A DNA stretch of 53,721 bases from a virus: UHGV virus genome UHGV-0138535. The stretch is one strand, 5' to 3'. Both the position numbers and the translations under genes were made by a program. The notes under the pieces were generated by a model, which saw only the letters and a list, made by a program, of their open reading frames with translations, was not told the origin of the DNA and ran no database searches. Shown piece after piece: positions 8,183-53,238 of the stretch (position 1 is its first letter; each line of letters begins with the position of its first letter).

Positions 8183-8440
8183 ATGAGTATGAACATGATT
8201 AGTAAAGCATGGAACGTAAAACTTAATAGCCCGATTCAAAAACTTGTCTTAATGGCTCTGGCTGAAAAGGCAGATAACAAAGGACGGGTACATGATGCAT
8301 CACGCAAAGAAGTAGCCGCAATGTGTGAACTTCCTGTTCATACGGTACATGATGCCTTCGCCGCGTTAATGGATAAAGGATTTGTTTGTCGTCTTGATGC
8401 ATTCAGTGATGTCTATGTAGTGATGTTGCCGGAGGGATGA
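8183..8440 (+). CDS. winged-helix DNA-binding protein (HTH_36-like)
   Basis: In-frame ATG at 8183 with GGAGAAAA RBS inside track ORF 8105..8440 (track start is TTG); LNSPIQKLVLMALAEKADNKGRV...VHTVHDAFAALMDKGFV. Confidence 0.6.
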   Translation: MSMNMISKAWNVKLNSPIQKLVLMALAEKADNKGRVHDASRKEVAAMCELPVHTVHDAFAALMDKGFVCRLDAFSDVYVVMLPEG

Positions 8441-8443
8441 TCT

Positions 8444-9496
8444 ATGAAGTGGTTTAAGCATGACAGCGATGCGAACCGCGATGAAAAACTTCAAAACGTT
8501 TTGTTAGATTATGGCCTGGAAGGGTACGGGCTTTATTGGTATTGCCTCGAACTAATAACTTATGACGTAGATCAGCACAATCTGAATTTTGACCTACGAC
8601 ATGACGCGAGAATCATTGCGCGAAACGTCGGATCTACTGAAAAACGTATAGAAGAAATGATGAAATACTTCATCGAAATTGGTTTGTTTGAATGTTCTCA
8701 AGGCCACATAACTTGTTTAAAGTTATTGAAAAGGCTGGACCAATCAATGACTTCTAAAAGCGCTTACAGGGCCGCCATAAACACAGCGAAGGAGCAATTA
8801 AAATTAGAAAAGTTAATCAATCCAACACAAAAAGGTCATGATAGGGTCATGACCGGGTCAGGAAAGGGTCATGAATTAGAATTAGAAGTAGAAAAAGAAA
8901 GAGAAAAAGATATATACACTTCGTGTATTGTCGAAAATGAACAAAAAATGGTCAATCAGGATGGCGTAAACGAAGCGGCATTGCGTTGCCTTGCCTTCTA
9001 CAACGACAAGGCAGGATGCAAATGTCGTGATGCTAAGCCATTCGTAGAACTACTGACAGAAACAAAAACACGTAAAGCGTATACGGAGAATGAGATCACG
9101 TTAGTAATTGAGTGGGCTTTAACCCAATGGCGTAGCCGTGGTGGAGTACCTAAGCCTATCAACATTTGCCGGGTAACTAAATTTGATGGGTATCTGACTG
9201 ATGCTGAACAATGGCGCAAACTGTCAGCCACTGTAAACGCTGCCGACGTGGTGGAAGCATTTAACAGCACGTTTGACGGCCTGTTACCACCTGCCGAACT
9301 GGATCGGGATCTTGAACGCAAGATCTATGCGTTCACTGACTACCTGAAAGACAAAAGCATTAACGGCTTTGTCGCCTACTTCGAAACGTTCAAAAACACG
9401 GCTTCAGATTTTTACTTCGGCGATGGCTTCACCGCGACACTTGATTTCCTGCTTAAACCAAAAACGCTACGTGATACGCGCGCTGGCGTTCTTTGA
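8444..9496 (+). CDS. replication initiation protein (DnaD-like N-terminal replisome organiser domain)
   Basis: 350 aa; N-terminus MKWFKHDSDANRDEKLQNVLLDYGLEGYGLYWYCLE typical of phage replisome organisers; precedes helicase. Confidence 0.7.
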   Translation: MKWFKHDSDANRDEKLQNVLLDYGLEGYGLYWYCLELITYDVDQHNLNFDLRHDARIIARNVGSTEKRIEEMMKYFIEIGLFECSQGHITCLKLLKRLDQSMTSKSAYRAAINTAKEQLKLEKLINPTQKGHDRVMTGSGKGHELELEVEKEREKDIYTSCIVENEQKMVNQDGVNEAALRCLAFYNDKAGCKCRDAKPFVELLTETKTRKAYTENEITLVIEWALTQWRSRGGVPKPINICRVTKFDGYLTDAEQWRKLSATVNAADVVEAFNSTFDGLLPPAELDRDLERKIYAFTDYLKDKSINGFVAYFETFKNTASDFYFGDGFTATLDFLLKPKTLRDTRAGVL

Positions 9497-9629
9497 CCAA
9501 TCACGATCCGCAAAAATCCAAAATTACCCACAAAACAACCTCACCAGCGAGCTAAATCGCATGTGGTGCTACACTTGCTTACCTTTTTGCGATTAGCTCG
9601 TTATAGAGCGTTACGGAGAGGATTTTAAA

Positions 9630-9731
9630 ATGGACGGTAAACACGTTTTCGCCCTGGCTTTTGCCATCGCTGCGGCAATCGCTGTTAACGTCGCCTTGTT
9701 CGGCGGTCTGTACCTGCTAATCAATCCATAA
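9630..9731 (+). CDS. hydrophobic micro-protein (33 aa, single predicted TM helix)
   Basis: ATG preceded by GGAGAGG; MDGKHVFALAFAIAAAIAVNVALFGGLYLLINP; not in track. Confidence 0.35.
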   Translation: MDGKHVFALAFAIAAAIAVNVALFGGLYLLINP

Positions 9732-9870
9732 CCTACCTACCATTCTGTAAATCGAAAATTAGCCACCTGATGGCGTCTCTGACGCAATAAGACACTGCAA
9801 CCTGTGCAAACGGGTGTCGCGGTGGGTTTTTGCGTTGTAGCGCGCATGATGTTCTTAAGGAGTTGGAGCG

Positions 9871-10407
9871 ATGCGCAAGTTAACACATGAAGAACAAGTT
9901 GCAGCTATCGCGAAAGTTAATCCTGATGTTGAAGTGCTGGTTGAAATAGTTAATAACAGTACAAAAGTATTATGCCGCTGCAAGGTTTGTGATCATGAGT
10001 GGTCGGCTAAACCTAGAGACATTAAGAGCGGGCGCGGTTGCCCGAAATGCGCTAAATACGGGTTTTTATCACACTACAACGGAAAACTTTACATCATGGT
10101 TGATGATCTTGAAGTGCCTACACAAATGAAAATTGGTGTAAGCGTAAAAGAGAACGAAAGGAGGAACAGAGTATTTAAAAGTGCTCGTAAGGCAGGTGTA
10201 AGGCTGACTGATTTACAGGTAGTTAAAACATGGAATGGGCCTACTGAGATTATGCAGGAAATAGAAAGCAAAATGCACGATGCTTTCAGTGACTATAAAA
10301 TAAACTTCCCTGTTAAGTTTGATGGTAGCACTGAATTTTTTTATTACAGGCCGGAAGTATTCGACATGGTAGAAGAAACATATAAAGAGATTGTTTGCTG
10401 TCAATAA
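9871..10407 (+). CDS. zinc-ribbon plus T5orf172/GIY-YIG-like domain protein
   Basis: 178 aa; CRCKVCDHEW...CPKCA zinc ribbon; GKLYIMVDD...KIGVS...ENERRNRV...HDAF...GSTEFFYY resembles T5orf172 motifs; AT-rich; own RBS AAGGAG. Confidence 0.55.
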   Translation: MRKLTHEEQVAAIAKVNPDVEVLVEIVNNSTKVLCRCKVCDHEWSAKPRDIKSGRGCPKCAKYGFLSHYNGKLYIMVDDLEVPTQMKIGVSVKENERRNRVFKSARKAGVRLTDLQVVKTWNGPTEIMQEIESKMHDAFSDYKINFPVKFDGSTEFFYYRPEVFDMVEETYKEIVCCQ

Positions 10408-10440
10408 ATATACAAAATGTAAACATGAGGAAATAACATT

Positions 10441-11559
10441 ATGTCGCAAAGAAAAATCAGCGATGAGCAATTGATCGCTGAATATAACAACGGTTTAACG
10501 TACAAGCAGATCGCTGAAAAATATGGCATGTCAAAACGCAACGTCGAGCGGCTGGGCGCAAAGCTGGCGAAACGCGGTTTATTATCAACGCGCCGCGCCC
10601 CTGGTTTTGGCGTTACTGGTGAGTCGGTTCTTGTCGATAAGGATGGGAATACAGTCATGCGCTGGATTAAAACAGCCCGTGATCGCGATGAAATGGAAAG
10701 GCTAATGGAAGCGGCCCGCGACGCTTTCACTGAAGAAATCCCACGCGCGGAGGCCGTGCCAGTGCCGGAAATTGATTTTCAAAAAAGCCTGGCCCTTTAT
10801 CCGGTATTTGATCTGCATATCGGGGCGCTTGCTCATAAAGCTGAATGCGGCGAGAGTTACGACACTGGGATCGCTGAGCGCGTATTGAATGAATTCTTTG
10901 ACTACGCTGTAGGCGCTGCGCCGATGTCTGAGAAAGCTGTTTTGCTTCTCGGTGGGGATGTTCTTCACACTGACGGGCTGTTGCCAGTTACGCCATCAAG
11001 CAATCACGTTCTTGATTGCGATTCGCGCTATGCAAAACTTGTCTATGTAGCGATCAGGTCGGTCCGGCGGGCTGTCGGGAAGATGTTGTTAAATCATAGG
11101 GATATTGAAATCCAGGTACTATCAGGCAATCACGACCAGTCTGGTATGATTTGGCTACGTGCTGCGCTGGCGGCTTTTTACGAAGACGAACCGCGCGTAA
11201 CTGTTGATGTGTCCCCTGCTATCGTCCACCACACACAGTACGGCAAAACATTCCTTGCTTACCACCACGGGCACACTATCAAAAAGCCGGAAAATTTATT
11301 GTCTGCTTGCGTAGCTGACTGGCGTGAGGATTTCGGCAAGTCTGCGGCGGTTTACGCTCATTGCGGGCACTGGCACCATCAACGGCTGATTGAATCATCG
11401 CTAGGCGTTGTTGAGTATCACGGCACATTAGCGGGCAAAGACGCTTATTCAACTAATGGCGGCTGGCGGTCGCGGCGTCTGGCAGCGGTGATTATTTACA
11501 GCCCGGATCATGGGGAGATCGGGCGCTTTGTTTATTACCCTGAACATTCCATTTTGTAA
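10441..11559 (+). CDS. HTH domain fused to calcineurin-like metallophosphoesterase
   Basis: 372 aa; N-terminal sigma-70 region 4-like HTH; phosphoesterase motifs FDLHIG, GGDVLHTDG, GNHD, HHGH, GHWHH. Confidence 0.6.
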   Translation: MSQRKISDEQLIAEYNNGLTYKQIAEKYGMSKRNVERLGAKLAKRGLLSTRRAPGFGVTGESVLVDKDGNTVMRWIKTARDRDEMERLMEAARDAFTEEIPRAEAVPVPEIDFQKSLALYPVFDLHIGALAHKAECGESYDTGIAERVLNEFFDYAVGAAPMSEKAVLLLGGDVLHTDGLLPVTPSSNHVLDCDSRYAKLVYVAIRSVRRAVGKMLLNHRDIEIQVLSGNHDQSGMIWLRAALAAFYEDEPRVTVDVSPAIVHHTQYGKTFLAYHHGHTIKKPENLLSACVADWREDFGKSAAVYAHCGHWHHQRLIESSLGVVEYHGTLAGKDAYSTNGGWRSRRLAAVIIYSPDHGEIGRFVYYPEHSIL

Positions 11560-11577
11560 ACAGGAGGCAATAACATA

Positions 11578-12999
11578 ATGGTAACTGAGCAAATAAACTC
11601 ACTACGGCAGGAACGTGAAGCGTCAGTTATCGGCGGGCTGCTGTTAGGTGGCCTTACTCCTAACGCTCAAGATGTTCTCGCCACACTTGATCCTGAAGTG
11701 TTCACGATCCCGCTTTATAAACGTGCGTTTGAAGTTATCCGGGCGCAAGCCAGAAACAGAAATCTTATCGACGCTTTATTGGTTGGCGATGAAATTGGCA
11801 ATGAAAACTTTGTACCACTGATGCAAACGGCGCGATCGTGTCCTTCTGCTGCCAACCTGAAGGGATACGCACAGCTACTACGTGAAGAGCACCAGCGGCG
11901 GCAGATGTTGGAACTCATCGACGATATGCGCTACAAACTGGAAACGGGGACGCTTGAAGTCGTCAGGGAGACGATGAAAGATTTTGATTCCCGGTATTCA
12001 AAATTAAAGGTAACAAAAGATCAAATTATCCCGGTGCTGTTGCGCGATGCGGTCCAGGAATACACGGAAGTGTTAAGTAAACGCATGGAGTGTGGCGTGA
12101 ACTCTGACAACATCAAAACAGGGATTGACCCACTCGACGAAATGTTAGGCGGCATTAACGCTACTGATCTGGTGCTTATCGCCGGACGCCCAGGGTCTGG
12201 TAAATCGGCGTTGGCGTTGGCAATTGCCCGCGCGGCGGCTGAACGTCCATACCCTGGAGGCGAAGGTCAGCGGGTCGGCGTTTTGCTGTTCACGCTTGAA
12301 ATGTCGCTCGATCAGATGACTGAACGCGCTATCGCTGGCGCGGGTAACTTATCAACGGATTGCCTACGTAATCCGGTAAAACTGGATGACGAAGGTTGGG
12401 CGCACGTAGCACAGGGAATGAGCGCCCTTGCCGATCTCGACGTGTGGATTGTTGACGCATCGCAGTTAACGGTCGAGGAAATACGCGCCACCGTCGAACG
12501 GATGAAACAGGACCATCCTAACCTGGGGATGGTAATGATTGACTACATCGGGTTAATGAAGCTGGCTAAGGCCGAGCGTCATGATCTCGCTGTAGGGCAA
12601 TTGTCGTGGTCATTGAAAATGATGGCGAAGGAGTTGCGCGTGCCAGTAGCGGCACTTGCGCAATTATCCCGCCGCGTTGAGGAACGACCGAACAAGCGCC
12701 CGAACAATTCTGATCTGCGTGATTCCGGTAATCTTGAACAAGACGCAGACCGGATCATCATGGTCTACCGCGACGGCTACTACAACGAACAATCTGTTGC
12801 CCGCGAATACATGGAGATTATCGTTTCAAAAAACCGTCACGGGAAAACGGGTACTGTTTACCAGCGGTTTGATGATAACGGCAACATTTTACCATGCGAC
12901 CAGGCCCGCGCGGCTTCGGCTTGCATTCAGTCTATGCAACAACGTCCGTCTGCAAGCCGATTCTCACCACGAAACAACCAGAATAACGCATCTTTTTAA
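11578..12999 (+). CDS. DnaB-family replicative helicase
   Basis: 473 aa; Walker A GRPGSGKS, DnaB-like N-terminal domain and RecA-like C-terminal motifs. Confidence 0.85.
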   Translation: MVTEQINSLRQEREASVIGGLLLGGLTPNAQDVLATLDPEVFTIPLYKRAFEVIRAQARNRNLIDALLVGDEIGNENFVPLMQTARSCPSAANLKGYAQLLREEHQRRQMLELIDDMRYKLETGTLEVVRETMKDFDSRYSKLKVTKDQIIPVLLRDAVQEYTEVLSKRMECGVNSDNIKTGIDPLDEMLGGINATDLVLIAGRPGSGKSALALAIARAAAERPYPGGEGQRVGVLLFTLEMSLDQMTERAIAGAGNLSTDCLRNPVKLDDEGWAHVAQGMSALADLDVWIVDASQLTVEEIRATVERMKQDHPNLGMVMIDYIGLMKLAKAERHDLAVGQLSWSLKMMAKELRVPVAALAQLSRRVEERPNKRPNNSDLRDSGNLEQDADRIIMVYRDGYYNEQSVAREYMEIIVSKNRHGKTGTVYQRFDDNGNILPCDQARAASACIQSMQQRPSASRFSPRNNQNNASF

Positions 13000-13077
13000 T
13001 TAACTTGAGAAACGGCTTACCGGAAAGTTTACCGCTTTCTGGTGGCTGTTTTCGCGCTTAAATCGAGGCTAGAAACA

Positions 13078-13605
13078 ATGAAAACCATTTATAAAACACA
13101 AATAGCGAAATTTTTACAGGATGCCACTGTTGCTGGTGAAGCAACAATTATTAAATCTATTCCAGGTCCTGAAATCGAGATCGTTAATAGTTTGCGTGAT
13201 ATGGTTTCTGACGGCGCTATTATTCCTGTGGAAATGGGAGGGCCGCGATTATCATATTGCTTGAAGTCAGTGCGCGAAATGGCAATAAAAAAAATCATGC
13301 CTTTATTTCTGAATAGTAGCAATTATTTTTCTGCTGAGGATGTTAAAAAAGAATTAAAACTCGAAATAAAACAGAGGAAAATTTGTCGGGTTTTAAAGAT
13401 GTTAGGCAGTGAAAATTTATTAACAGTTAATAAATTTGATGGGAAATACTTTTTTAGATCAGCTCGCTTCTATGGTTGTTCGAGTCCTATCGTATTTGAA
13501 TTTAACAACCGCCTGAATGAATACCGGAAAAATAACGGCCTGCTGCCGGATAAACCAGTATTTGAGATCGAAAAACTTAACGGTGAAACGGGGTTGGAAT
13601 TATGA
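13078..13605 (+). CDS. hypothetical protein (AT-rich moron)
   Basis: ATG at 13078 with GAGG RBS inside track ORF 13042..13605; markedly AT-rich versus flanks. Confidence 0.45.
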   Translation: MKTIYKTQIAKFLQDATVAGEATIIKSIPGPEIEIVNSLRDMVSDGAIIPVEMGGPRLSYCLKSVREMAIKKIMPLFLNSSNYFSAEDVKKELKLEIKQRKICRVLKMLGSENLLTVNKFDGKYFFRSARFYGCSSPIVFEFNNRLNEYRKNNGLLPDKPVFEIEKLNGETGLEL

Positions 13606-13808
13606 GACGGGTAATCTTTTATTCAGTTGAAACGTTTATTGACGATACGCGCGTTTATTATCCGTGGGAAGTATACGACGCAAAGGTGTATACACCGCCA
13701 CTGATGCGGAAATATAAACACGTAAAATTTAACCGGGTTTTTGTACCAATGCGTGATGCACTGCAGGCGCTGCGCGGTGAATTACGAAACACAATGCGTA
13801 TTGTGTGA
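13602..13808 (+). CDS. hypothetical protein
   Basis: 68-aa track ORF, start overlaps upstream stop. Confidence 0.4.
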   Translation: MRRVIFYSVETFIDDTRVYYPWEVYDAKVYTPPLMRKYKHVKFNRVFVPMRDALQALRGELRNTMRIV

Positions 13809-13817
13809 GGTGGCGTT

Positions 13818-14015
13818 ATGGATAAGGAATTAGATTTAACAGTTGAAGACCTGAGCACGATTGCGGAATACATGCGCGACGATGATCCTGATCGTCCTGT
13901 CGTCGTTGATATGAAAAAACTAAAAAACGACCATATGGCTAGTTCAAGGCTCATTTCTTTATGGGCGATCATGTATGCGCGGGCGCAATGGAAAAATAGC
14001 AACGGTGTATTATGA
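13818..14015 (+). CDS. hypothetical protein
   Basis: 65-aa track ORF; stop overlaps ninB start. Confidence 0.4.
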   Translation: MDKELDLTVEDLSTIAEYMRDDDPDRPVVVDMKKLKNDHMASSRLISLWAIMYARAQWKNSNGVL

Positions 14016-14443
14016 GGCAAATTAGATTTGAGATAGTCAACGACGCCGTGAAAGAAAATGCTATCAGGCAGATAAGGGAAATACAGCCTGATAGCAAAAG
14101 CCCGCTGATAATCACCATCCAGGAGAAAACCCGCTCGCTAAGCCAAAATAGCCTTCTATGGGCGTTGCTAACCGACATTAGTGATCAGGTTAATTGGTAC
14201 GGTAAGAGGCTGTCGCCGGAAGACTGGAAGGCGGTATTCACTGCCGGGCTTAAGAAATATGGCGTTGTCCCTAACCTGGACAAATCAGGCTTTGTTGTGC
14301 TGGGAACATCAACCAGCCGGATGAGTAAAGCGGAATTTAGCGAATTAATCGAACTGATCTACTCGTTCGGCGCTGAGCATGGCGTTCAGTGGTCAGGTGA
14401 TACGAAATTAAACGAGGAATTTATAAAACGCTGGGGGCAATAA
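14012..14443 (+). CDS. ninB: NinB recombination protein
   Basis: 143 aa; closely parallels lambda NinB (TIQEKTRSLSQNSLLWALLTDISDQVNWYGKRL...VVPNL...GFVVLGTSTSRMSKAEFSELIELI). Confidence 0.8.
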   Translation: MRQIRFEIVNDAVKENAIRQIREIQPDSKSPLIITIQEKTRSLSQNSLLWALLTDISDQVNWYGKRLSPEDWKAVFTAGLKKYGVVPNLDKSGFVVLGTSTSRMSKAEFSELIELIYSFGAEHGVQWSGDTKLNEEFIKRWGQ

Positions 14444-14619
14444 TGGTTGAGTATTTTAAAGCTAAACCGACCGGGATTTATTACAAGGTAGAAAATGGTA
14501 ATGTGTTTTATCTTAATCGCGCGGCTAATGAGTGGCGAGAGTGTCAGTGCTACTACCTGAGAGATATTAGAAATCATCCACATTATTTTATTAAAGTTGA
14601 CGATGTACCAGTGGCATAA
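14443..14619 (+). CDS. small hypothetical protein (58 aa)
   Basis: ATG overlapping ninB stop (TAATG); not in track. Confidence 0.35.
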   Translation: MVEYFKAKPTGIYYKVENGNVFYLNRAANEWRECQCYYLRDIRNHPHYFIKVDDVPVA

Positions 14620-14633
14620 TTGAGGATAAACAA

Positions 14634-15290
14634 ATGAGTAAATCAAAAGCAATCGGTGTGATTAGCCATCGCACTAACCCTGAATGCTACCCATCGTTTG
14701 AAGTATCGACATGCAGGGAAGAATATAATTTTGGATCATGTTATTTAGTTGGTGTTCGCGCTGATCGCGGCACTTATTCTGTTATGGCGGCAAGCTGGAA
14801 GTTTGATAAATATGCCAATTTATCTAATAAAGATGATGATGGCATGAACAAAGAAAGTGAAATCATTGACGAATTAATCGAAGATGAGCGGCATGATTGC
14901 GATACGCCAGAAGTTACGGAATGGATGGCAGGAGAAAAGCCTCCATGCGGAGTATGGCTTGAGCTTCTAGATCCTGTCGATGGTCGGAAATATGTTATTC
15001 TGAAATACAAGTATATAAGTGATCGCCTTGCTCTTTTTGTAGAAATGGATGCGCCTGATTTTGAACAAGCCGGGGAATGGAAGCATTTCGCTCATAAGTT
15101 GTATGTAGATCCGAAAGAAAAAATACTGGCTGAAATTGCGTTTGCACTTGCTACTAAGGTTATCGGTGAAGATGCTGCAAAAGAAATTGATTTTAACCGC
15201 GACAACGAATTTTCGTGCGATTATCGCAATATGGCGCAAGCTATTATAGACGGATGTATAGGACACGTTGAATACACGGGGGGTGAATAA
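14634..15290 (+). CDS. hypothetical protein (AT-rich)
   Basis: 218-aa track ORF; AT-rich. Confidence 0.5.
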   Translation: MSKSKAIGVISHRTNPECYPSFEVSTCREEYNFGSCYLVGVRADRGTYSVMAASWKFDKYANLSNKDDDGMNKESEIIDELIEDERHDCDTPEVTEWMAGEKPPCGVWLELLDPVDGRKYVILKYKYISDRLALFVEMDAPDFEQAGEWKHFAHKLYVDPKEKILAEIAFALATKVIGEDAAKEIDFNRDNEFSCDYRNMAQAIIDGCIGHVEYTGGE

Positions 15291-15520
15291 TGGATAAAAC
15301 GGCAACAATTCTTCTTAGTCGCCCTGCCATCTGCCGTATGCTGGGGGGAATTAGCAGGGGAACGTTTTACTTATGGCGTAAAAAGTGGGAACGGAACGGA
15401 ACTCCGTTCCCGGCCCCTGTTGATGTACTTGGTACCGGGCGTGGCGTTATGTACCGCTATCAGGACGTAATGCAGTTCTTTGATCAGATTGGTTTAACGT
15501 CAGCCAAAGATAATACATAA
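15290..15520 (+). CDS. AlpA-family HTH regulator / putative excisionase
   Basis: 76 aa; ICRMLGGISRGTFYLWRKKWERNGTPFPAPVDVLGTGRGVMYRYQDVMQFF matches AlpA/Xis-type HTH; overlaps integrase 3' end convergently by 37 nt. Confidence 0.65.
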   Translation: MDKTATILLSRPAICRMLGGISRGTFYLWRKKWERNGTPFPAPVDVLGTGRGVMYRYQDVMQFFDQIGLTSAKDNT

Positions 15521-16674: not shown

Positions 16675-16685
16675 GTTGCCCCCAT

Positions 16686-16950: not shown

Positions 16951-16977
16951 AAAGAAACGAGGCGTTAGCCTCGTTTC
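16946..16977 (-). terminator. intrinsic terminator at end of tail-fibre operon
   Basis: Hairpin GAAACGAGGC-GTTA-GCCTCGTTTC followed by TTTTT on minus strand. Confidence 0.6.
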
Positions 16978-45507: not shown

Positions 45508-45510
45508 TGT

Positions 45511-45765: not shown

Positions 45766-45768
45766 AAA

Positions 45769-46068: not shown

Positions 46069-46111
46069 GATTACACCCTTCTGATTTGATGGGGCCATCC
46101 GGTCCCGTGTT

Positions 46112-46252
46112 TTATGCTTCTTCGTCTCCTTTAAACCCTAAGCACTCCGCGTACTCGTCAATGCTTAATGCTTCTTCACCTTGTGCCAGTAATTCAAAGT
46201 ATCTTGCGTACAGTTCGAAAACCCAGGCCGGATATTTAGCGTTAGCGTTCAT
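46112..46252 (-). CDS. small hypothetical acidic protein (46 aa)
   Basis: ATG preceded by GGGGGAAACC; not in track. Confidence 0.3.
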   Translation of the reverse strand: MNANAKYPAWVFELYARYFELLAQGEEALSIDEYAECLGFKGDEEA

Positions 46253-46262
46253 GGTTTCCCCC

Positions 46263-46541
46263 TTATGCCATACGTGCGAATTCAAGTGATTTGCATTCGT
46301 AGTCTTCCTCTGCCTGTTCGATGACTGCCATCATCATTTCGTTTGCGTTGTTGAATGCGTTGCTTTGTGCGAACTTGTCGGCTCCACCTTCTTCTTCGAA
46401 CTCCGCGTTGTTTGCTGCAATGTAGTGATATTCGATGTTGTTCAGGTAAGGGCTTGCAGCGTGTGCTGGGTCTTCTTTCTCCACCATCTCCCAAAATGCG
46501 TTTAAGCGAGATTCGACTTCTTTGTTAATCCAGCGTTTCAT
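46263..46541 (-). CDS. hypothetical protein
   Basis: 92-aa track ORF. Confidence 0.45.
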   Translation of the reverse strand: MKRWINKEVESRLNAFWEMVEKEDPAHAASPYLNNIEYHYIAANNAEFEEEGGADKFAQSNAFNNANEMMMAVIEQAEEDYECKSLEFARMA

Positions 46542-46622
46542 TTTTCTACCCTCCGCATCGTTCTCTCTTCAGCTTCTTTATAACAAAATGGCACTGCCGA
46601 AACAATGCCATTTCGTAAACCT

Positions 46623-46638
46623 TGTGATACAGATCACA
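46623..46638. promoter_or_regulatory. near-consensus CRP-type palindrome TGTGATACAGATCACA
   Basis: Perfect TGTGA-N6-TCACA with flanks TTGTGATACAGATCACATTT in 98-bp intergenic gap, next to AAATGGCA...TGCCATTT hairpin. Confidence 0.4.
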
Positions 46639-46639
46639 T

Positions 46640-46864
46640 TTACGTTTCTTCCGTAAAAGTAACCTTCATCGCCCCATCCGAACTACGGACAACATAACGA
46701 CCAATACCGCCTAGCGGCCCTGCATACCATAAGTGACCGTAAGTGTCAGTCACGACGATAAACGGAAATTTAGGAGACAATCCCATCGGTTTTTCAGCCG
46801 TGTACTGTACGCCTTCCTCAAAACAGCCCAATTTCGATTCGTTACACGTTAAAATCATTTTCAT
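46640..46864 (-). CDS. small protein, member of FxxG..Y/TDxxGxLW paralog family
   Basis: Start MKMILT at 46864 with AGGGGT RBS; FEEGVQY...VTDTYGHLWYAG. Confidence 0.45.
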   Translation of the reverse strand: MKMILTCNESKLGCFEEGVQYTAEKPMGLSPKFPFIVVTDTYGHLWYAGPLGGIGRYVVRSSDGAMKVTFTEET

Positions 46865-47100
46865 ACCCCTACATACGAAAACGCAGCAAAAGCACCACCA
46901 CCAGCACGCGCATAAACAAGCGCCGTGCCACAACCCATCTTATAAAATCGCCATAACTGCCCCTGGTCGTCAGTAATGGCATGAATATATTCCTGATCCT
47001 TTGCGTCAACCAATGCCGCGTCAACCTCGTAGATCTTGCCATTCTTAAAAAACGCGCTGCATCGTGAGTATGTGCACTGGTATCTATGTTTCCGATTCAT
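46861..47100 (-). CDS. small protein, member of same paralog family
   Basis: 79 aa; FKNGKIYEV...AITDDQGQLW. Confidence 0.45.
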   Translation of the reverse strand: MNRKHRYQCTYSRCSAFFKNGKIYEVDAALVDAKDQEYIHAITDDQGQLWRFYKMGCGTALVYARAGGGAFAAFSYVGV

Positions 47101-47110
47101 AGCACCTCAC

Positions 47111-47368
47111 TTATTCCGGTTTACTGCCTTCGCGGGCGCAAAACTCCGCGATCTCACGGAAATCATGCACTATGCGATAAATATACAAACCAGCGGCGTT
47201 ATTGATATGGCTAACATAAGCGAAATAAACTTTATCATCATCGCCAGTTATCGCCATTGCACCATCACCGCCCGGTGCGCCGTGGAGTTGAACGCCGCAA
47301 TAGATCTTCCCTTCTTCAAAAATATTGCGGTCGCGCGTCTGCAATACCTCAAAATATAAATGTTTCAT
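47111..47368 (-). CDS. small protein, member of same paralog family
   Basis: Start MKHLYF at 47368 with AAAGGGG RBS; FEEGKIY...AITGDDDKVY. Confidence 0.45.
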   Translation of the reverse strand: MKHLYFEVLQTRDRNIFEEGKIYCGVQLHGAPGGDGAMAITGDDDKVYFAYVSHINNAAGLYIYRIVHDFREIAEFCAREGSKPE

Positions 47369-47378
47369 TGTTGCCCCT

Positions 47379-47591
47379 TTAATAACGTTCAAAGCTGGCA
47401 GCAAAACCTACACCGGATATTTCACCGCCTTCATAGCTCGGCCTGAATACCCATATTTCGTCATGATTATCAATCAAGGCAAGGCAATTACTCATTGTGT
47501 GTGCTTCATTGCCATAAACGATGTGAACGTCATAAATACTCCCAATCGTGAAAACACTGTCATTGCTTGAGTATGAGCATTTAACTTGCAT
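47379..47591 (-). CDS. small protein, member of same paralog family
   Basis: 70 aa; FTIGSIYDV...LIDNHDEIWVF. Confidence 0.45.
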   Translation of the reverse strand: MQVKCSYSSNDSVFTIGSIYDVHIVYGNEAHTMSNCLALIDNHDEIWVFRPSYEGGEISGVGFAASFERY

Positions 47592-47836
47592 CAGAAAACC
47601 CCTTTATAATCGACCGTGTATTTTGCTATCAGATTCCAGTCGCAGTAATTAAGCATGTCGCGAGGCTGCCAGCCTTTCATCCCGACCGCCCGCCGCGCAG
47701 CGTGACGGCGATAATCATCGTTATAGTCAGCTATGCACCACGTCTGGAGAACAAACATATAATTTGCTTCATTAACCAGGATAGCCACCCGCTTTCCTGT
47801 TGCCTTGTCTTTTGCCCTGAAATAATTCACTTTCAT
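47591..47836 (-). CDS. hypothetical protein
   Basis: 81-aa track ORF. Confidence 0.45.
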   Translation of the reverse strand: MKVNYFRAKDKATGKRVAILVNEANYMFVLQTWCIADYNDDYRRHAARRAVGMKGWQPRDMLNYCDWNLIAKYTVDYKGVF

Positions 47837-48048
47837 TTTAATACCTCGTCGATCAGCATTTCTTCTTCCAGGTTAGCCGGACGTTTACGGAATATCCCGG
47901 CAAAAACCAGGTCATCAAGTAGGTCTTTGCGTTTAAATAGCCACTCTTTCATTATTACCCCGTCATCGCTGCGATATACGACGCCGTTTTTCAAAAAATA
48001 AAAAGTGCTGGTATTTGTTTGAAGGTATAAATCTTCGTAAACGTCCAT
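47833..48048 (-). CDS. hypothetical protein
   Basis: 71-aa track ORF; FLKNGVVYRSDDG resembles paralog-family motif. Confidence 0.45.
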   Translation of the reverse strand: MDVYEDLYLQTNTSTFYFLKNGVVYRSDDGVIMKEWLFKRKDLLDDLVFAGIFRKRPANLEEEMLIDEVLK

Positions 48049-48052
48049 GATA

Positions 48053-48280
48053 TTAACCCTCGACTACTTGCAAGCCGCGCCCCTTATCGCCTACGAAGTC
48101 GCCCAGGCTAAACGTATATGACCACGCCGGGTTAATGTAGTAATCATCAGCACCGTGAGCGATAAGGTCTTTACCCAAAATGACGCAGGTCACATCATCA
48201 GAATGAACAACGTCTACCGTTTCCCCTACCACGCGTTTTAATGATGGGTAGCCGTGATCGTGCAAGAATTTAACTTTCAT
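48053..48280 (-). CDS. hypothetical protein
   Basis: 75-aa track ORF. Confidence 0.45.
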   Translation of the reverse strand: MKVKFLHDHGYPSLKRVVGETVDVVHSDDVTCVILGKDLIAHGADDYYINPAWSYTFSLGDFVGDKGRGLQVVEG

Positions 48281-48564
48281 ATTTCTTTCCCTTTATAAGT
48301 AACAGCATCAGCGATCAACAATACCGCCAGCAATTCACCGTCATGTAACGGGTCTGGAATAACAAAAAATATGTCGCTGTTTTTGTCCGGCACTACTACG
48401 CGCATATTTCCCTGTTTGTCTTCATGCACGAACCACGGCTTTTTGTGTGGCTCAAACATGCCGAAAAGTAATTTAAGATCTATTTCTTCACCCTTCGTGA
48501 ATAACGACACATCAGTTGTAGTGATAACTAACGCTTTCTGATCTGCTGTTTTCTTCGCTCTCAT
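48277..48564 (-). CDS. hypothetical protein
   Basis: 95-aa track ORF. Confidence 0.45.
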   Translation of the reverse strand: MRAKKTADQKALVITTTDVSLFTKGEEIDLKLLFGMFEPHKKPWFVHEDKQGNMRVVVPDKNSDIFFVIPDPLHDGELLAVLLIADAVTYKGKEI

Positions 48565-48794
48565 TCCTCTGTCTCCCAGCGGTCTATGCTGATTAAAAAG
48601 TCCCGGATAGCGTGTCGCTCGTCGCGCGTCGGTTTACGCTTCCGGTAAATTTTGAAATCGAACCATTCTTTTTCTTGTTCGAAGTCCAGATCGTAAGCAA
48701 GCGCCTCGATATATCCGCAGTCGTGATACTGGTAAGCCACGCCAGCACGAACAAAAAAGCGGGTTTTATCCCGCTTGTGTTCATAGATACACAT
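48561..48794 (-). CDS. hypothetical protein
   Basis: 77-aa track ORF. Confidence 0.45.
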   Translation of the reverse strand: MCIYEHKRDKTRFFVRAGVAYQYHDCGYIEALAYDLDFEQEKEWFDFKIYRKRKPTRDERHAIRDFLISIDRWETEE

Positions 48795-48804
48795 ATTTGC
48801 CCCG

Positions 48805-49035
48805 CTATGCAGTTGTGTAGCTGTCTACCAGCTTTTCATCCTTCATTCTGGCAAGCTGTGCGATGTTCATCGTGTAGCCGCCATCAGAGAAAAGCCACTC
48901 CGCAGCCTTGCGACGAAAAACAATATCATCATGGTTGTGCGTCCATGTAGCGATAACCACTCGCTTTCCGTCAGTGGCAAACATAGATAATTCATTATCA
49001 ACTACGTCGATAGCTTGCCAGATCTTTAACTCCAT
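48805..49035 (-). CDS. hypothetical protein
   Basis: 76-aa track ORF. Confidence 0.45.
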   Translation of the reverse strand: MELKIWQAIDVVDNELSMFATDGKRVVIATWTHNHDDIVFRRKAAEWLFSDGGYTMNIAQLARMKDEKLVDSYTTA

Positions 49036-49391
49036 TGTTTACCCCCGTAAATTTTGGATAGCTCCCGCGCTTCCTGATCTTCAAATATATTTATATGCAG
49101 GTTATGCAGGCGGCGCATTGTGCGGAAGCGTGGTCGGAATTCTTGACCCCTTTTAATGTATTTATCGCCAATTGAATAAATATGACCGTATGAATACCAT
49201 CTATTCCCGACCCAAATTAGATAAATTTCACCCTCATAATTAAATTTGATTGTAAACTTGTCAACCTCCATTATTAATCCTTTGTCGAGGATGTCATTTA
49301 GCATTTCATCCCATTCTTTCAGGAATGGTTGTTGATAAAAACCAAAAAGCGTATTTGCAGCATGGCAAAGATAATCAATGATTATTTGCAT
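49026..49391 (-). CDS. hypothetical protein
   Basis: 121-aa track ORF. Confidence 0.45.
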   Translation of the reverse strand: MQIIIDYLCHAANTLFGFYQQPFLKEWDEMLNDILDKGLIMEVDKFTIKFNYEGEIYLIWVGNRWYSYGHIYSIGDKYIKRGQEFRPRFRTMRRLHNLHINIFEDQEARELSKIYGGKQWS

Positions 49392-49395
49392 ATTA

Positions 49396-49596
49396 TCACC
49401 ACATCATATAGTAAACGTTATCATCTGCTAATTCGTCTGCGTCTCTTTGACAGTCGATTGTCGCATCATCTTCGTGCCATTCTTTAGCAAATAAACGCGC
49501 CCATTTACGACGCTCACGTTTATTGTGCTGCAGGTCACTAAAAACCATTAAAGCCTTGTCGTAAGCTCTTACCAGGCGTTTCATTCTACTTTTCAT
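49396..49596 (-). CDS. hypothetical basic protein
   Basis: 66-aa track ORF. Confidence 0.4.
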   Translation of the reverse strand: MKSRMKRLVRAYDKALMVFSDLQHNKRERRKWARLFAKEWHEDDATIDCQRDADELADDNVYYMMW

Positions 49597-49802
49597 TTTT
49601 CACCCTTCCTTAATTCCTTAATTTCAATATTGCGTAACCGGACGTTGCACGGCGTTTCAGATTTACCAGTAAGCGCCAGCGTCAGGTTTTCAGGTGTCGT
49701 GTAAAGAATTATCTCTTTACCAGTGCTAAATTTAATTTCTATGCGGATCTCGTTTTCATCACCGCACAATACGCGGCTAATTGACAGGCCAGCTTTTTTC
49801 AT
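49593..49802 (-). CDS. hypothetical protein
   Basis: 69-aa track ORF. Confidence 0.4.
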   Translation of the reverse strand: MKKAGLSISRVLCGDENEIRIEIKFSTGKEIILYTTPENLTLALTGKSETPCNVRLRNIEIKELRKGEK

Positions 49803-49830
49803 TGCTCAACAAACCTTAAAATCTGTATTG

Positions 49831-50115
49831 CTAGTAAATATCACACTTTATTGCGAATACCTTCACCGGATCAGGGCCGAATAGTGGATGTTGAATCAAC
49901 TTGATTTCGTACCCCATGTAAGGCAATACGATAATCCGGTCTTTCTCATCATCCGATGGATAACCCCATTTAATGATTAATCTTGTGTACTCCCGCCCCT
50001 CCAGGCGTTTACGCCAGTATTCATTGTAAAGCCGGTATTCCTCAACCTTCTTCCCCGCCCGGATAGCGTGGAAGTATTCTCCTTTTAAATTCAAATGCAG
50101 GTGTTTATTTGCCAT
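49831..50115 (-). CDS. ASCH/DUF3850-like small protein
   Basis: Start MANKHLHLNLKGEYFHAIRAGKKVEEYRL with AAGGGTGA RBS inside track ORF 49831..50148; pattern resembles DUF3850/ASCH N-termini. Confidence 0.45.
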   Translation of the reverse strand: MANKHLHLNLKGEYFHAIRAGKKVEEYRLYNEYWRKRLEGREYTRLIIKWGYPSDDEKDRIIVLPYMGYEIKLIQHPLFGPDPVKVFAIKCDIY

Positions 50116-50452
50116 CACTATCACCCTTAAAATATTGCTCAAGCGCACGTTTGACGTTCATTTCACGCTGATAATTATTATCTGCATAGATTGCTGCTGC
50201 CGATATGTGATCGATAATTTGCTGCAATAAATCAGGATGAATTTTTATTTTTTCGTCAAGAACAATGCGCTCCGGCTCTGGTGCTGTAGCACTATCTTCA
50301 ATAATTTCTATCTCACCATGACCACCGCATCGCGGACAAACAAACTTATCGCCTTGATACAAAAAGAAGCCGCAACCTTTTTCAGTCTTAACAACCATGC
50401 CGTCGTCGTCGCAGTTTTCGCAATATAACCACCCGATATTAATTATTTTCAT
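50105..50452 (-). CDS. zinc-ribbon protein
   Basis: Start MKIINIGW at 50452 with GGGAGG RBS (track start is TTG at 50488); CENC...CPRC Cys pairs. Confidence 0.45.
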   Translation of the reverse strand: MKIINIGWLYCENCDDDGMVVKTEKGCGFFLYQGDKFVCPRCGGHGEIEIIEDSATAPEPERIVLDEKIKIHPDLLQQIIDHISAAAIYADNNYQREMNVKRALEQYFKGDSDGK

Positions 50453-50642
50453 CTTCTCTATTCCTCCCGTAAATGTGAACTGGCTCAATAGGTACGGCTG
50501 GCAATTCGCCTTCGTTTAATGCGCTTGCCATACCCAATATCAATCGCGCTTCTGCACCAGTTACTTTCTTACACCACGCGCCGCCCGTTTTATCTTCGAA
50601 CAAGATAACGGCAAACTGATCGTTTATTTCTAACTTGTCCAT
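50439..50642 (-). CDS. hypothetical protein
   Basis: 67-aa track ORF immediately downstream of Q-like gene. Confidence 0.4.
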   Translation of the reverse strand: MDKLEINDQFAVILFEDKTGGAWCKKVTGAEARLILGMASALNEGELPAVPIEPVHIYGRNREDENN

Positions 50643-51364
50643 TATTCACCCCGTGTCACTCGTTTAATTTCGCTTTCCGCGCGGGCCTCTTCTTTGAATA
50701 GCTCCGCTATGGCGTCTTCATAGAAAACCCGGTATTTCTTCCACCATGTTGATCTGCTTACCGGGAAAACAAGCTGGTTAACGGCCTGCCGGACGAGATC
50801 TACCGGGAAACGCGAGTACCCGCGCCCGCCGCAATGCTGGCACGTTTTGAATACTGGCATTTCCGCCGCTTCGCTGGCTGTTTTATCCGGTATCTCGCCA
50901 CGCCCCTTGCATTGTTTACAATGATTGCGAACCTTTCCATGCCCCTTGCATTTTTTGCAAAGATGTTTTTCTCCGTAGTCGTCAAACGTAAATTTATATC
51001 CGCCGCACTCCATACAAGTTTTTTCCGTCGCGGCGCTTTGGCAATAATCCCGAAACGCGAAAACGGCAACAAGAATAATAAGATCATTGCGTTGTTCTTC
51101 ATTTAATTCCATCACATATTCGTAATCTTTCGCCATAGCTCTTAAACGCTCTGTAAGCAATACTACAGCCCTGTGTTTTTCGGCTTGCGATAGCTCCATC
51201 TTCCCTAAAAAAGCACTATAGCCAAGCTCTACGCGCGATTGCGCCATACCCGCAGCGGTTAGCGCATCAGTCGTATTAAGCGCATCCGGGGATGTGCCCC
51301 GGCTTTCGTCTGATAATCGCGGTGATTTGGGAAAGTGGAATTTCAGAATGGATTCTAAATTCAT
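50642..51364 (-). CDS. putative late-gene antitermination protein Q-like (zinc-finger)
   Basis: 240 aa; follows NinG-RusA as Q does in lambdoid nin regions; multiple CxxC pairs. Confidence 0.6.
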   Translation of the reverse strand: MNLESILKFHFPKSPRLSDESRGTSPDALNTTDALTAAGMAQSRVELGYSAFLGKMELSQAEKHRAVVLLTERLRAMAKDYEYVMELNEEQRNDLIILVAVFAFRDYCQSAATEKTCMECGGYKFTFDDYGEKHLCKKCKGHGKVRNHCKQCKGRGEIPDKTASEAAEMPVFKTCQHCGGRGYSRFPVDLVRQAVNQLVFPVSRSTWWKKYRVFYEDAIAELFKEEARAESEIKRVTRGE

Positions 51365-51546: not shown

Positions 51547-51548
51547 TG

Positions 51549-51956
51549 TCACACCTCCCAATAATTCTGAATATATTCGTTAATATCAGGTAACACCCCT
51601 GAATGTTCTTTCACTTTTACGAATATCTGGCCGTTTTTTATTTTATGGCACTTTACAACCTTAAGACTAAAAACCTGCCTATCATCAACCCAAAAATGAG
51701 CGTAAGTAAGACTATCGAATATTGCTTTTAAGCAATTATCAATATCGTGTGGGCGTAGTGTAGGTGGCGCTACATATATATAAACGGAAACATTAAAATC
51801 AATATTAAGATCAAGTTTTAGTGATTCTATTATTTCTTTGACTTTTTTTTGGAAATCCTTGCCTTTGTTTGTTACATACTTACTACCCCTTTTATTGTTG
51901 CCGTAATAAGAATTAACCGATGGTGCCCAGGGTAACGTGAATTCAAATTCACGCAT
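51549..51956 (-). CDS. rusA: RusA-family Holliday junction resolvase
   Basis: Internal ATG at 51956 with AAGGAG RBS; LPWAPSVNSYY...RPHDIDNCLKAIFDSLTYAHFWVDDRQV matches RusA motifs. Confidence 0.75.
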   Translation of the reverse strand: MREFEFTLPWAPSVNSYYGNNKRGSKYVTNKGKDFQKKVKEIIESLKLDLNIDFNVSVYIYVAPPTLRPHDIDNCLKAIFDSLTYAHFWVDDRQVFSLKVVKCHKIKNGQIFVKVKEHSGVLPDINEYIQNYWEV

Positions 51957-52445
51957 CAAAATCTCCTTGCTTACACCATTGTTTTCATGGAAACAATATT
52001 TTTTTTCTCCTTTTTTTCTGACATCCACTGCATCTTCAAAATTATCAAACTGACCAAGATACACATTTTTACCATTAACACATATTTCCGCTCTATAGTA
52101 TCCGTTAGAAAGTTTATGAACCCCAGGCTGCCCACTTTTATTATTTTTTGGTTTTGCCTGATTTCTTCCGTTTTGCTTATGAGTAACAAGGCGTAAATTT
52201 TCTATCCTGTTATCATTTCTGTTGTGCCAAATATGATCTATCTCGCATCCTTTCGGAATTGGTCCGTTATGCATTTCCCATATAATTCTATGTACTTTAT
52301 GTAATTTATCGTTAACACGAACAACCCAATAACCACTATTTTTATGGATGCAACCAGCCAAATCACCAGCGTTACACTTTCCTTTCTTTCCCTTCCAATA
52401 TAAAAAACCGTTGTCGTATTCAAATATATCATGCCAATTATTCAT
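51957..52445 (-). CDS. HNH homing endonuclease with AP2-like DNA-binding domain (no own stop; in frame with rusA)
   Basis: N-terminal 163 codons of track ORF 51549..52445; HNH motif CEIDHIWHNRNDNRIENLRLVTHKQN and AP2-like GVHKLSNGYYRAEI; AT-rich. Confidence 0.65.
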
Positions 52446-53047
52446 GCTACCTTTCTCCTTAAGGCGTCCAATTTCGCCTGATAGATGTTTATTAGCTCCT
52501 TACATTCTGCAATCGTCCATTTATGCGTATCGTTGTTGTTCTCCAGAGCTACCACCCTGGCGAGGCCAATTTTTCGAATTAGCGCCGGGCGATACCCTCC
52601 TATGTTTCCGTCTAATGTCTGGTTGCAGTGCCTGCATTGTTTATGGCAATTCTCCTCGTTAAAGCGAAGGTGTCCTGCGGCGGCAACCGTCCTGTAATGG
52701 CCCGCATCCCACCCGCATTGCTCACCGTAGTAAGTCCCGCAGGATATACACGGCAAGCGCGCGTCACGTTCGCGGATATAGGCGTTGAATACGTTTTGAA
52801 CTTGCTTGATCCAGTAGCTGCGCGGATTTAACTGTTTCCGCTTCCGGTTGCGTTCTTCCCGCTGGCTATCGCGGCGTTTCTTCCGTTCCATAGCCTTCAT
52901 AGCCTTTTCACGGTCGCGGCATAGCTGGTCAAACTTCAGTTCTTCCAGACATTCATCGCTGCACCACGTTTGATTATGATATTTAGGCTCAAAAAAAACG
53001 CCGCAGCACTTGCAACGGCGTCTTATGGGTTTTTTAGGGTTTTGCAT
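52442..53047 (-). CDS. ninG: NinG recombination protein
   Basis: Start MQNPKK at 53047 inside track ORF 52442..53137; closely parallels lambda NinG (PRSYWIKQ...RERD..LPCISCGT...WDAGHYRT.AAA..LRFNE.N.HKQC..CNQ). Confidence 0.8.
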   Translation of the reverse strand: MQNPKKPIRRRCKCCGVFFEPKYHNQTWCSDECLEELKFDQLCRDREKAMKAMERKKRRDSQREERNRKRKQLNPRSYWIKQVQNVFNAYIRERDARLPCISCGTYYGEQCGWDAGHYRTVAAAGHLRFNEENCHKQCRHCNQTLDGNIGGYRPALIRKIGLARVVALENNNDTHKWTIAECKELINIYQAKLDALRRKVA

Positions 53048-53061
53048 AAAAACCACCCCGA

Positions 53062-53238
53062 TTATTTTTGATTCTCTGTTTCGTTCAGCCTTTCGGCGTG
53101 TCCGGCCCTTAGCCAATGTTCTAAGCATTCGTTGCACTCGTTACAGCCTCCTTTCTTCGTGCTGCATACATTGCACATTGCACGCATAACGCTTTCTCGT
53201 TCATAGTCGTCATGCCATTGGTAATTATCAAAAGGCAT
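53062..53238 (-). CDS. ninF: NinF-like small zinc-binding protein (58 aa)
   Basis: ATG with GGAGAG RBS; YERESVMRAMCNVC...CNECNEC resembles lambda NinF; not in track. Confidence 0.55.
   Translation of the reverse strand: MPFDNYQWHDDYERESVMRAMCNVCSTKKGGCNECNECLEHWLRAGHAERLNETENQK

Follow-up and report, generated by a model that had tools for sequence, protein, structure and literature searches.

Gene order in the viral genome UHGV-0138535 follows the conserved layout of the mEp021-like phages of Escherichia coli

Phage mEp021 of Escherichia coli and its relatives were recently grouped as the 'mEpimmI' phages on the basis of six isolates and 42 prophage or metagenome genomes (PMC11893012; Front Microbiol 2025). 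They are described there as Nus-dependent, non-lambdoid phages with a 'conserved genome architecture' that neither hybridize nor recombine with lambda and that share a CI-like repressor (~96% similar across the group) and a Q-like protein. Four integrase types are distinguished, and attachment is mostly at ydaM (type I). According to the same report, an N-like protein called Gp17, with conserved residues R17, R19, R20, and R24, acts on three sites: nutL between the repressor gene and the replication operon, nutR1 upstream of gp17, and nutR2 after a methyltransferase gene and before the nin-Q genes. The report also presents nutL and nutR2 as the most alike of the three sites, gives terminator t5 of mEp021 as experimentally shown, and is our source for the functions of Gp17, the nut sites, and terminators t1, t2, and t5, for repressor immunity, and for integration at ydaM. 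Here we compare with this group the 53,721-nucleotide viral genome UHGV-0138535 (the entire stretch analyzed is called the window). An initial annotation of this DNA proposed an atypical lambdoid gene order that arose by inversion of the replication segment or from a mosaic origin. We find that the unusual order is genuine but already known, in that it is the conserved layout of the whole published mEp021-like group.

The window very probably represents the genome (53.7 kb) of a temperate E. coli siphophage of the mEpimmI (mEp021-like) type, complete and circularly permuted, with a gene order that is the fixed architecture of this lineage. A megablast comparison of the window with 50,697 phage records revealed seven relatives that cover most of it at ~85-89% identity. 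These are Enterobacteria phages mEp021, mEp010, mEp013, mEp044, mEp515, and mEp554 and Escherichia phage MagusPhagus, whose genomes measure 53.0-54.7 kb and are collinear with the window at ~84-95% nucleotide identity. Full blastn alignments yield a single collinear chain across the whole window both for mEp021 (reverse strand, 82-93% identity) and for MagusPhagus (same strand, 77-99% identity). The last base of the window adjoins the first in MagusPhagus (positions 46971 and 46972) and in mEp021 (19780 and 19779). Likewise, in the finished chromosome of E. coli M1/5, window positions 28723-53721 correspond to 2695782-2720511 and positions 1-16858 to 2720512-2737980. An open reading frame (ORF) of 254 amino acids bridges the two ends of the window and is contiguous in mEp021, MagusPhagus, and the M1/5 prophage. 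Because the ends are contiguous in relatives and lie inside one ORF, we take the window to be one complete, circularly permuted phage genome, and the circularity that the initial annotation had only supposed is thereby borne out. The window holds one attP, one int gene, one repressor gene, and single sets of packaging, head, tail, and lysis genes; no chromosomal genes were found within it, and no tRNA genes that might serve as integration targets or chromosomal markers. The homologues of tail tube, tape measure, and J proteins are consistent with a siphovirus, and the Sf6-type small terminase fits headful packaging.

The conservation of this gene order was assessed in IMG/VR contigs and in 5,426 complete E. 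coli genomes, with gene identities taken from Pfam and PHROG scans. About 83% of the genome is co-oriented, from cI through recombination, nin, Q, lysis, and morphogenesis genes to int, and the replication block is divergent. The annotations of mEp021 and MagusPhagus give the same order and the same relative strands, and mEp021 and its group carry the same replication, nin, Q, lysis, and morphogenesis genes. All 41 IMG/VR loci (40 with a NinB at least 94% identical and one with a 54% NinB allele in the same slot) have Erf, N, and cI on one strand, then Rep, the exonuclease, DnaB, NinB, the 218-amino-acid ORF, and a helix-turn-helix (HTH) ORF on the other, and then Int on the first strand again, followed by J wherever the contig continues. 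In none of the 41 does NinG or Q come after NinB. Approximately 35 of the E. coli genomes carry the same phage inserted in dgcM (ydaM). In all 25 of the E. coli matches listed, the window from position 1 to at least 14.5 kb occupies one place on one strand, and in 23 E. coli genomes a single place covers at least 80% of window positions 28.7-53.7 kb. The window agrees with the mEpimmI group in every feature that sequence can address, namely synteny, the repressor (94% identity and 96% positives to Rep021 across 198 amino acids), Gp17, three boxA/nut sites, and a ydaM-type integrase with its att site.

As judged from the alignments, the differences between the window and its mEpimmI relatives are allelic or at the level of cassettes only. 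The tail fibre (16744-18766) and the plus-strand moron island (30074-31151) differ, and the window has an HNH sequence joined to RusA (51595-52440). Compared with MagusPhagus it has an additional zinc-ribbon/T5orf172 endonuclease ORF (9844-10403), which is present or absent among relatives, and it lacks the N4/N6 methyltransferase that mEp021 has between NinB and the upstream small ORFs. Neither mEp021 nor MagusPhagus nor the E. coli MS 21-1 prophage has the HNH part of the RusA ORF (~840 bp), RusA being 135 amino acids long there. The HNH part resembles a homing-endonuclease insertion that became fused in frame with RusA. The zinc-ribbon unit (~180 bp, window 9844-10407) matches five tandem copies in mEp021 gp12 and has two more matches in the tail-module moron region of mEp021. 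As a separate observation, 39 phage records match window positions 1-25000, including Bacteroides, Campylobacter, Listeria, and Klebsiella phages; one record, outside the best 20 of the 39, does so at 99% identity or more, probably over a short shared stretch.

The order of lambda (int-xis-recombination-N-cI, then cro-replication-nin-Q-lysis-head-tail on the other side of the immunity region) is not that of the window, a departure that the initial annotation had rightly recognized. The operon that precedes nin(F,G)-RusA-Q and the late genes is the N/recombination operon in the window and the cro/replication operon in lambda. With NinG, Q, and the late genes as reference, lambda has cI on the opposite strand and NinB on the same strand, but in the window these relations are exchanged, cI being parallel and NinB antiparallel. 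Cronobacter phage ENT47670 (NC_019927) provides an 'unflipped' comparison with canonical lambdoid order, having int-xis-exo-recT-N-cI on one strand and replication-DnaB-NinB-HNH-RusA-Q-lysis-head-tail on the other. Judged by gene order, the formal difference from lambda and ENT47670 is a flip of the entire early region (recombination, N, cI, replication, NinB) relative to nin(F,G)-RusA-Q and the late genes. This implies breakpoints past the NinB end (~15.5-16.9 kb) and immediately before NinF (~53.24-53.4 kb), and none at 8.1-8.2 kb.

It is possible, and compatible with the layout being standard for the group, that this arrangement goes back to a canonical lambdoid ancestor in which the whole early region was inverted once, long ago. 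The int/xis/attP cassette would then have been placed or replaced separately, and nutR2 would have been copied from the nut site on the cro side, so that antiterminated transcription into nin-Q was restored. One inversion with these two breakpoints would explain both reversed relations, and ENT47670 has the canonical order yet shares the head/tail module, NinB, and HNH-RusA. In addition, the predicted breakpoint coincides exactly with nutR2, which has 19 nt in common with nutL, in keeping with the resemblance noted in PMC11893012, and the int and HTH genes are exchanged within the group as a unit. However, a pure inversion would leave int between the recombination genes and NinF, where it is not found, so the int cassette must have been placed separately. 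Searches for inverted or direct repeat scars within 7.0-17.5 kb, and between 14.4-17.3 kb and 52.9 kb-1.3 kb, yielded only 11-15-nt matches that are no better than those in shuffled sequences, leaving neither breakpoint marked by a scar. At protein identities of 29-57%, the event, if it happened, can be neither polarized nor dated. Moreover, NinB occurs in other contexts among viral contigs, adjacent to NinG in three (L058, L060, L061) and ~10 kb upstream of DnaB in three more (L049, L050, L052), and independent modular assembly is as plausible as a single ancestral inversion.

Any such rearrangement must be old. In the seven relatives NinB identity is 96-98%, against a maximum of 57% in the other 511 phage records with a match; for NinG the values are 87-98% in the relatives and less than 57% elsewhere. 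Neither protein has a match between 60% and 85% identity among the phage records searched. The lack of matches in this range rules out recent acquisition of the nin genes from lambdoid phages, and with it the suggested mosaic origin if that origin was meant to be recent.

Far less credible is the proposal that only the replication segment (~8.1-15.5 kb) was inverted, either recently in an otherwise lambdoid genome or as a programmed invertible element. No other long stretch of the window is on the plus strand, and the GC skew switches sign over this block, but the skew merely tracks the coding strand. The best inverted repeat linking its edges is 15 nt with 87% complementarity, shuffled sequences give equal or longer ones, and the scars anticipated at 8100-8200 and 15500-16700 thus did not rise above chance. 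No invertase gene is present, and one and the same orientation of the block recurs in the seven phages, in the 41 IMG/VR loci, and in all 25 prophages listed for E. coli, where inversion of the block would have interrupted the one-strand matches. Given this uniformity across relatives, the window cannot be explained by misassembly, recent inversion, or a programmed invertible segment. Furthermore, flipping this block alone in lambda would not make cI and N parallel to the late genes; it is the whole early region that is reversed. The notion that the window arose by faulty assembly or by the joining of two independent prophages or of phage fragments, for which only the unusual gene order speaks, can be set aside almost entirely, as the window is collinear end to end with independent phage isolates and with prophages in finished chromosomes, every part of it is covered by relatives that are single phages, its only att site is its own attP, it has one repressor, integrase, and gene set and no chromosomal genes, and its length fits the 53-54.7 kb of the group.

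If the conserved mEpimmI layout is accepted, the question becomes how these genes are expressed. The immunity region is lambda-like in its arrangement, with cI followed by a terminator, a PL-like promoter, a nut site, the N-like gene, and recombination genes, and with a divergent operon that begins with a nut site and continues with replication genes. The Gp17 homologue is 92% identical to mEp021 Gp17 and carries an arginine-rich motif (NARERRRIKRE) that supplies R17, R19, R20, R21, and R24. A scan for boxA GCTCTTTAAAAATC found four matches in the window, compared with 0.95 expected by chance: at 8042 (plus strand), 53286 (minus), 7021 (minus, one mismatch), and a fourth at 6808 with two mismatches. 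The first three coincide exactly with the positions that PMC11893012 assigns to nutL, nutR2, and nutR1. Antitermination of the N and Q types is present by homology only (phrog_271, PF03589, and the boxA sites). The initial annotation envisaged one long leftward transcription unit from cI to int. The co-orientation stands, but terminators, three boxA/nut sites, and a Q gene on the co-oriented stretch, together with at least one strong promoter-like site downstream of cI, argue for an N-type and then a Q-type antitermination cascade along one strand, which would replace the single constitutive transcript.

In this scheme, early transcription would start on both sides of cI. The plus-strand operon, with nutL, would express the replication proteins, NinB, the 218-amino-acid ORF, and then a putative excisionase, and would converge on the 3' end of int. 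Transcription of the minus-strand operon, with nutR1 and Gp17, would pass terminator-like hairpins on its way through Erf, SSB, Abc2, and Dam and then beyond nutR2 to NinF-NinG-RusA-Q. Q may in turn permit read-through of the GC-rich terminator upstream of the holin gene (44349-44331) into the late block of 27 kb. On circular DNA, transcription modified by Q could pass the terminator at 16979-16952 and attP into int, whereas in the prophage it could not.

Several points weigh against this functional reading. The promoter and terminator calls for the window are consensus matches made from sequence alone, and the promoter scan returned fewer sites in the window than in shuffled sequences. A Q-dependent late promoter could not be placed with confidence. 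The late promoter of lambda directly follows Q; here, ~6 kb with ~25 small ORFs (44350-50640, minus strand) lie between Q and the terminator and holin gene, and the sole late-promoter candidate seen (TTGTAG-17-TAAAAT, ~44396-44368) is only ~12 nt before the terminator. No Cro homologue was recognized and no operators were identified in the window, and the first gene of the divergent operon resembles the winged helix of a replication initiator. Finally, the text of PMC11893012 contains the words 'orientation' and 'inversion' zero times each, with the layout presented in figures, and the functional reading is that of the present analysis.

Other features of the early region deserve mention. The ~350-nt leader between the PL-like promoter and the N-like gene (6729-7076, minus strand) hardly varies among 27 distinct relatives and is better conserved than the coding DNA on either side, which hints at a structured or multi-signal RNA beyond boxA. 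Conservation did not single out PR-like or PRM-like promoter hexamers, because the intergenic regions are near-invariant across the 26-27 distinct sequences. Terminator-like hairpins on the N-side operon occur at 4697-4681, 2411-2387, and 2233-2207. Methylases had been placed in the leftward stretch by the initial annotation; Dam is the sole one verified, and the homologue of the mEp021 'cytosine methyltransferase', which is the end-spanning ORF, has no Pfam match. NinB had been put at the end of the plus-strand replication operon; it is on that operon, but third from the end, followed by the 218-amino-acid and HTH ORFs. The winged-helix ORF at the head of this operon has no Pfam match, and its homologue is labelled 'MarR family' in RefSeq.

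On the minus strand, NinG, RusA, and Q upstream of the lysis, head, and tail genes are supported by Pfam, as had been proposed. The identity of the NinF-like ORF is more tentative: Pfam NinF gives no match at E<=0.01, a pairwise BLASTP comparison with lambda NinF gives a weak local match (10/18 identities, E=0.003), and its size (58 versus 56 amino acids) and its position overlapping NinG agree with lambda NinF. NinG scores 223 bits against a cut-off of 25.4, NinB 158.3 bits against a gathering cut-off of 23.8, and the RusA domain (PF05866) 46.7 bits against a gathering cut-off of 22.8.

The site nutR2 lies exactly at the junction of the methylase and NinF genes, as part of a set of elements that is invariant among 37 distinct aligned sequences from upstream of NinF. 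The set begins with TTACAAAATGG and continues with a TGTGA-N6-TCACA palindrome whose center is variable. This palindrome is perfect in the window and is called predicted terminator t4 in the mEp021 annotation. Next come a promoter-like TTGTTA-16-TATACT, whose -10 element overlaps an inverted copy of the 10-mer TACAAAATGG, then boxA, and then the boxB-like CGCTGAAATGCG. The center of the palindrome would lie ~60 nt upstream of the predicted start, near a class-I CRP position. It is possible but unlikely that the nin-Q block is more than the end of the N operon and is driven by a regulated early promoter of its own, at what would be the former boundary with the recombination/methylase block. In that case, the flip of the early region would have been followed by the re-creation of a 'PR-nutR' function for Q, and the step of lytic commitment may be coupled to cAMP-CRP and to a common regulator. 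The regulatory logic at nutR2 is where the remaining interest of this genome lies.

The 10-mer TACAAAATGG has 10 copies in the window, compared with 0.2 expected. Most are regulatory or intergenic: by the -35 element of the PL-like promoter, in the cI/replication intergenic region, flanking the nutR2 promoter-like site, and round the plus-strand islands of the tail module. mEp021 and MagusPhagus carry the element at homologous positions, lambda and ENT47670 lack it, and extended versions of 15-17 nt are common to the PL-like promoter, the cI/replication intergenic region, and the nutR2 site. Neither a promoter hexamer nor a dyad operator fits all copies, and the element lacks dyad symmetry. 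As a further observation, CRP-type palindromes with at most one mismatch occur at six sites in the window (1.6 expected), two of them perfect and one just upstream of the cI start.

The initial annotation placed int immediately downstream of the tail fibre genes on the same strand. Strand and order hold, but attP and a hairpin terminator intervene. In prophages, the match to window positions 16300-17400 breaks at a 12-13-bp overlap; the int-side half abuts dgcM and the tail-fibre half is ~55 kb away, next to zntB/ynaN, so that int and the tail-fibre genes sit at opposite ends of the lysogen. The int gene likely starts at the ATG at 16674, as in RefSeq homologues. Among 27 IMG/VR loci, the HTH ORF and int switch types together, both being ~89-99% or both ~44-58% identical to the versions in the window, whereas the identity of the 218-amino-acid ORF varies independently of this pair. 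Their exchange as a unit suggests that the HTH protein is the cognate excisionase, which would be expressed from the far end of the replication operon. A terminator-like hairpin for int (15411-15387) falls within the HTH ORF.

Among the late genes, the morphogenesis block also includes a decoration protein, a Mu-F-like protein, the portal, TerL, and the Sf6-type TerS. RefSeq/PGAP names the portal gene in E. coli prophages 'anti-CBASS protein Acb1 family protein'; the gene encodes a portal of the Phage_portal_3 family and is not defence-related, and the label is probably an annotation artefact spreading in E. coli genomes. The replication block had been taken as the only divergent segment. It is the only long one, and three small plus-strand islands are present in addition. 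The island between the tape-measure and tail genes (30103-31147) encodes a VasI/TagO-like protein of 219 amino acids (PF11319, E=1e-15), of the type VI secretion-associated kind, and a DUF7738/BamE-like protein of 124 amino acids. The E. coli MS 21-1 prophage has the same gene pair, and mEp021 and MagusPhagus have different cargo.

Features of the UHGV-0138535 window (positions in the 53,721-nt stretch)
Feature	Position	Strand	Basis or remark
254-aa ORF bridging window ends	441 to 1 and 53721 to 53398	-	joined translation is one open frame; mEp021 gp33 homologue
Dam-type N6-adenine methyltransferase	1235-1774	-	PF05869, E=8e-52
Abc2-like anti-RecBCD	4949-5227	-	phrog_656, E=2e-32
SSB	5243-5647	-	PF00436, E=1.5e-23
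Erf recombinase	5647-6291	-	PF04404, E=7e-42
N-like antiterminator (Gp17 homologue)	6438-6728	-	phrog_271, 'anti-termination protein N-like'
boxA of nutR1 (GCACTTTAAAAATC)	7021-7034	-	between PL-like promoter and Gp17 gene, as described in PMC11893012
PL-like promoter candidate TTGACT-17-TATATT	7077-7105	-	consensus match only; element GTATACAAAATGG abuts
Hairpin terminator right after cI	7207-7224	-	equivalent of mEp021 t1
CI-type repressor, immunity-I type	7230-7877	-	HTH_3 and Peptidase_S24
boxA of nutL (GCTCTTTAAAAATC)	8042-8055	+	head of replication operon
Small winged-helix protein, first plus-operon gene	8186-8440	+	phrog_4617 (matches N-terminus of replication initiators)
Replication initiator, Lin1244_N domain	8444-9496	+	Pfam, PHROG
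Zinc-ribbon and T5orf172/MUG113-type endonuclease ORF	9871-10407	+	Pfam (DUF4379 zinc-ribbon), PHROG; between initiator and exonuclease gene
Exonuclease-like protein	10441-11559	+	phrog_704
DnaB-type replicative helicase	11578-12999	+	PF03796, E=1e-75
MarR-like protein	13042-13605	+	Pfam/PHROG scan
NinB/Orf	14012-14443	+	PF05772, E=1e-46
218-aa ORF	14634-15290	+	
76-aa HTH protein, candidate excisionase/recombination directionality factor	15290-15520	+	HTH_23; 3' end overlaps int 3' end convergently
Tyrosine integrase	15484-16776	-	PF00589 and Arm-DNA-bind_3; longest ORF
attP arms, 25-nt direct repeat	16684-16708, 16925-16949		flank core; arm-site candidates
attP core (GGTCCTGTCTGGA)	16846-16858		between tail fibre gene and int; matches both prophage junctions in dgcM (= ydaM)
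Strong hairpin terminator	16952-16979	-	between tail-fibre genes and attP/int
Small ORF downstream of tail fibre	17021-17305	-	
Tail fibre	17298-19094	-	99.5% identical to E. coli M1/5 prophage end
Small plus-strand islands	19235-19537, 27292-27546, 30103-31147	+	19235-19537 just outside morphogenesis block
Morphogenesis block	19577-41426	-	J, I, K, L, M, tape measure, tail tube, connectors, capsid
Portal (Phage_portal_3)	37941-39332	-	position and Pfam
Lysis cassette: holin, lysozyme, Rz/Rz1	43156-44306	-	Pfam, lambda comparison
Lysozyme	43614-44105	-	
Holin	44106-44306	-	
GC-rich terminator just upstream of holin	44331-44349	-	equivalent of mEp021 t5
Q-type antiterminator	50642-51364	-	PF03589, E=2e-29
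HNH-RusA, one 298-aa ORF	51549-52445	-	HNH_3 residues 50-94, RusA residues 173-278
NinG/Rap	52442-53137	-	PF05766, E=4e-66
NinF-like 58-aa ORF	53062-53238	-	weak match, tentative
boxA of nutR2 (GCTCTTTAAAAATC)	53286-53299	-	48 nt upstream of NinF-like ATG
Conserved control region upstream of nutR2	53315-53398	-	putative function
Promoter-like TTGTTA-16-TATACT	53342-53315	-	~15 nt upstream of nutR2
Perfect CRP-like palindrome TGTGA-N6-TCACA	53360-53375		within nutR2 control region
Two inverted copies of TACAAAATGG	53319-53328, 53384-53393		bracket promoter-like site
End-spanning ORF, 3' part	53398-53721	-	part of the 254-aa ORF
TACAAAATGG copies	7107, 7951, 11549, 27039, 27430, 30018, 30044, 38117, 53319, 53384		
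CRP-type palindromes, perfect	53360-53375, 46623-46638		
CRP-type palindromes, one mismatch	7903, 19140, 26491, 40930		

When all ORFs of the window were compared with lambda by tblastn, homologues were found for cI (34%), NinB (53%), NinG (53%), Q (33%), Rz/Rz1, and the tail proteins M, L, K, I, and J (27-48%). The head and packaging genes of the window are unrelated to those of lambda. Their counterparts are found in ENT47670, whose packaging/head/tail module is homologous and has the same internal order, with identities of 71% for TerL, 32% for the portal, 31% for the Mu-F-like protein, and 36% for the scaffold-like protein, and with decoration, connector, and tape-measure proteins also in common. 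ENT47670 further shares NinB (57%), DnaB (29%), and the HNH next to RusA (39%), although HNH and RusA are separate adjacent genes there and one ORF in the window. The odd gene order is neither an inversion peculiar to this genome nor a chimera, and a false lead is averted. The 'lambdoid' label gives way to that of a published non-lambdoid group, and the layout is standard for a common lineage of gut coliphages whose sequencing dates from 2018 and whose description dates from 2025.

The control logic of the window can nevertheless be set beside that of lambda and of canonical lambdoids such as HK97, HK022, P22, and the Stx phages. All have a CI-type repressor gene followed by a PL-like promoter, nut site, and N-like gene, and in lambda and the window alike recombination genes are on the N operon and replication genes on the divergent operon. 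The window differs from lambda in that NinB is apart from NinF and NinG, a third nut site is present, and int, which follows the tail fibre, is read inward from attP and meets the replication operon convergently. For specialists in phage regulation, this is a modest refinement, unsurprising in kind, of how antitermination circuits tolerate genome rearrangement. The explicit point that goes beyond the published text is that, relative to canonical lambdoids, the whole early control region is reversed, such that Q and the late genes would depend on the N/recombination operon, and this reversal offers a rationale for the third nut site of the lineage.

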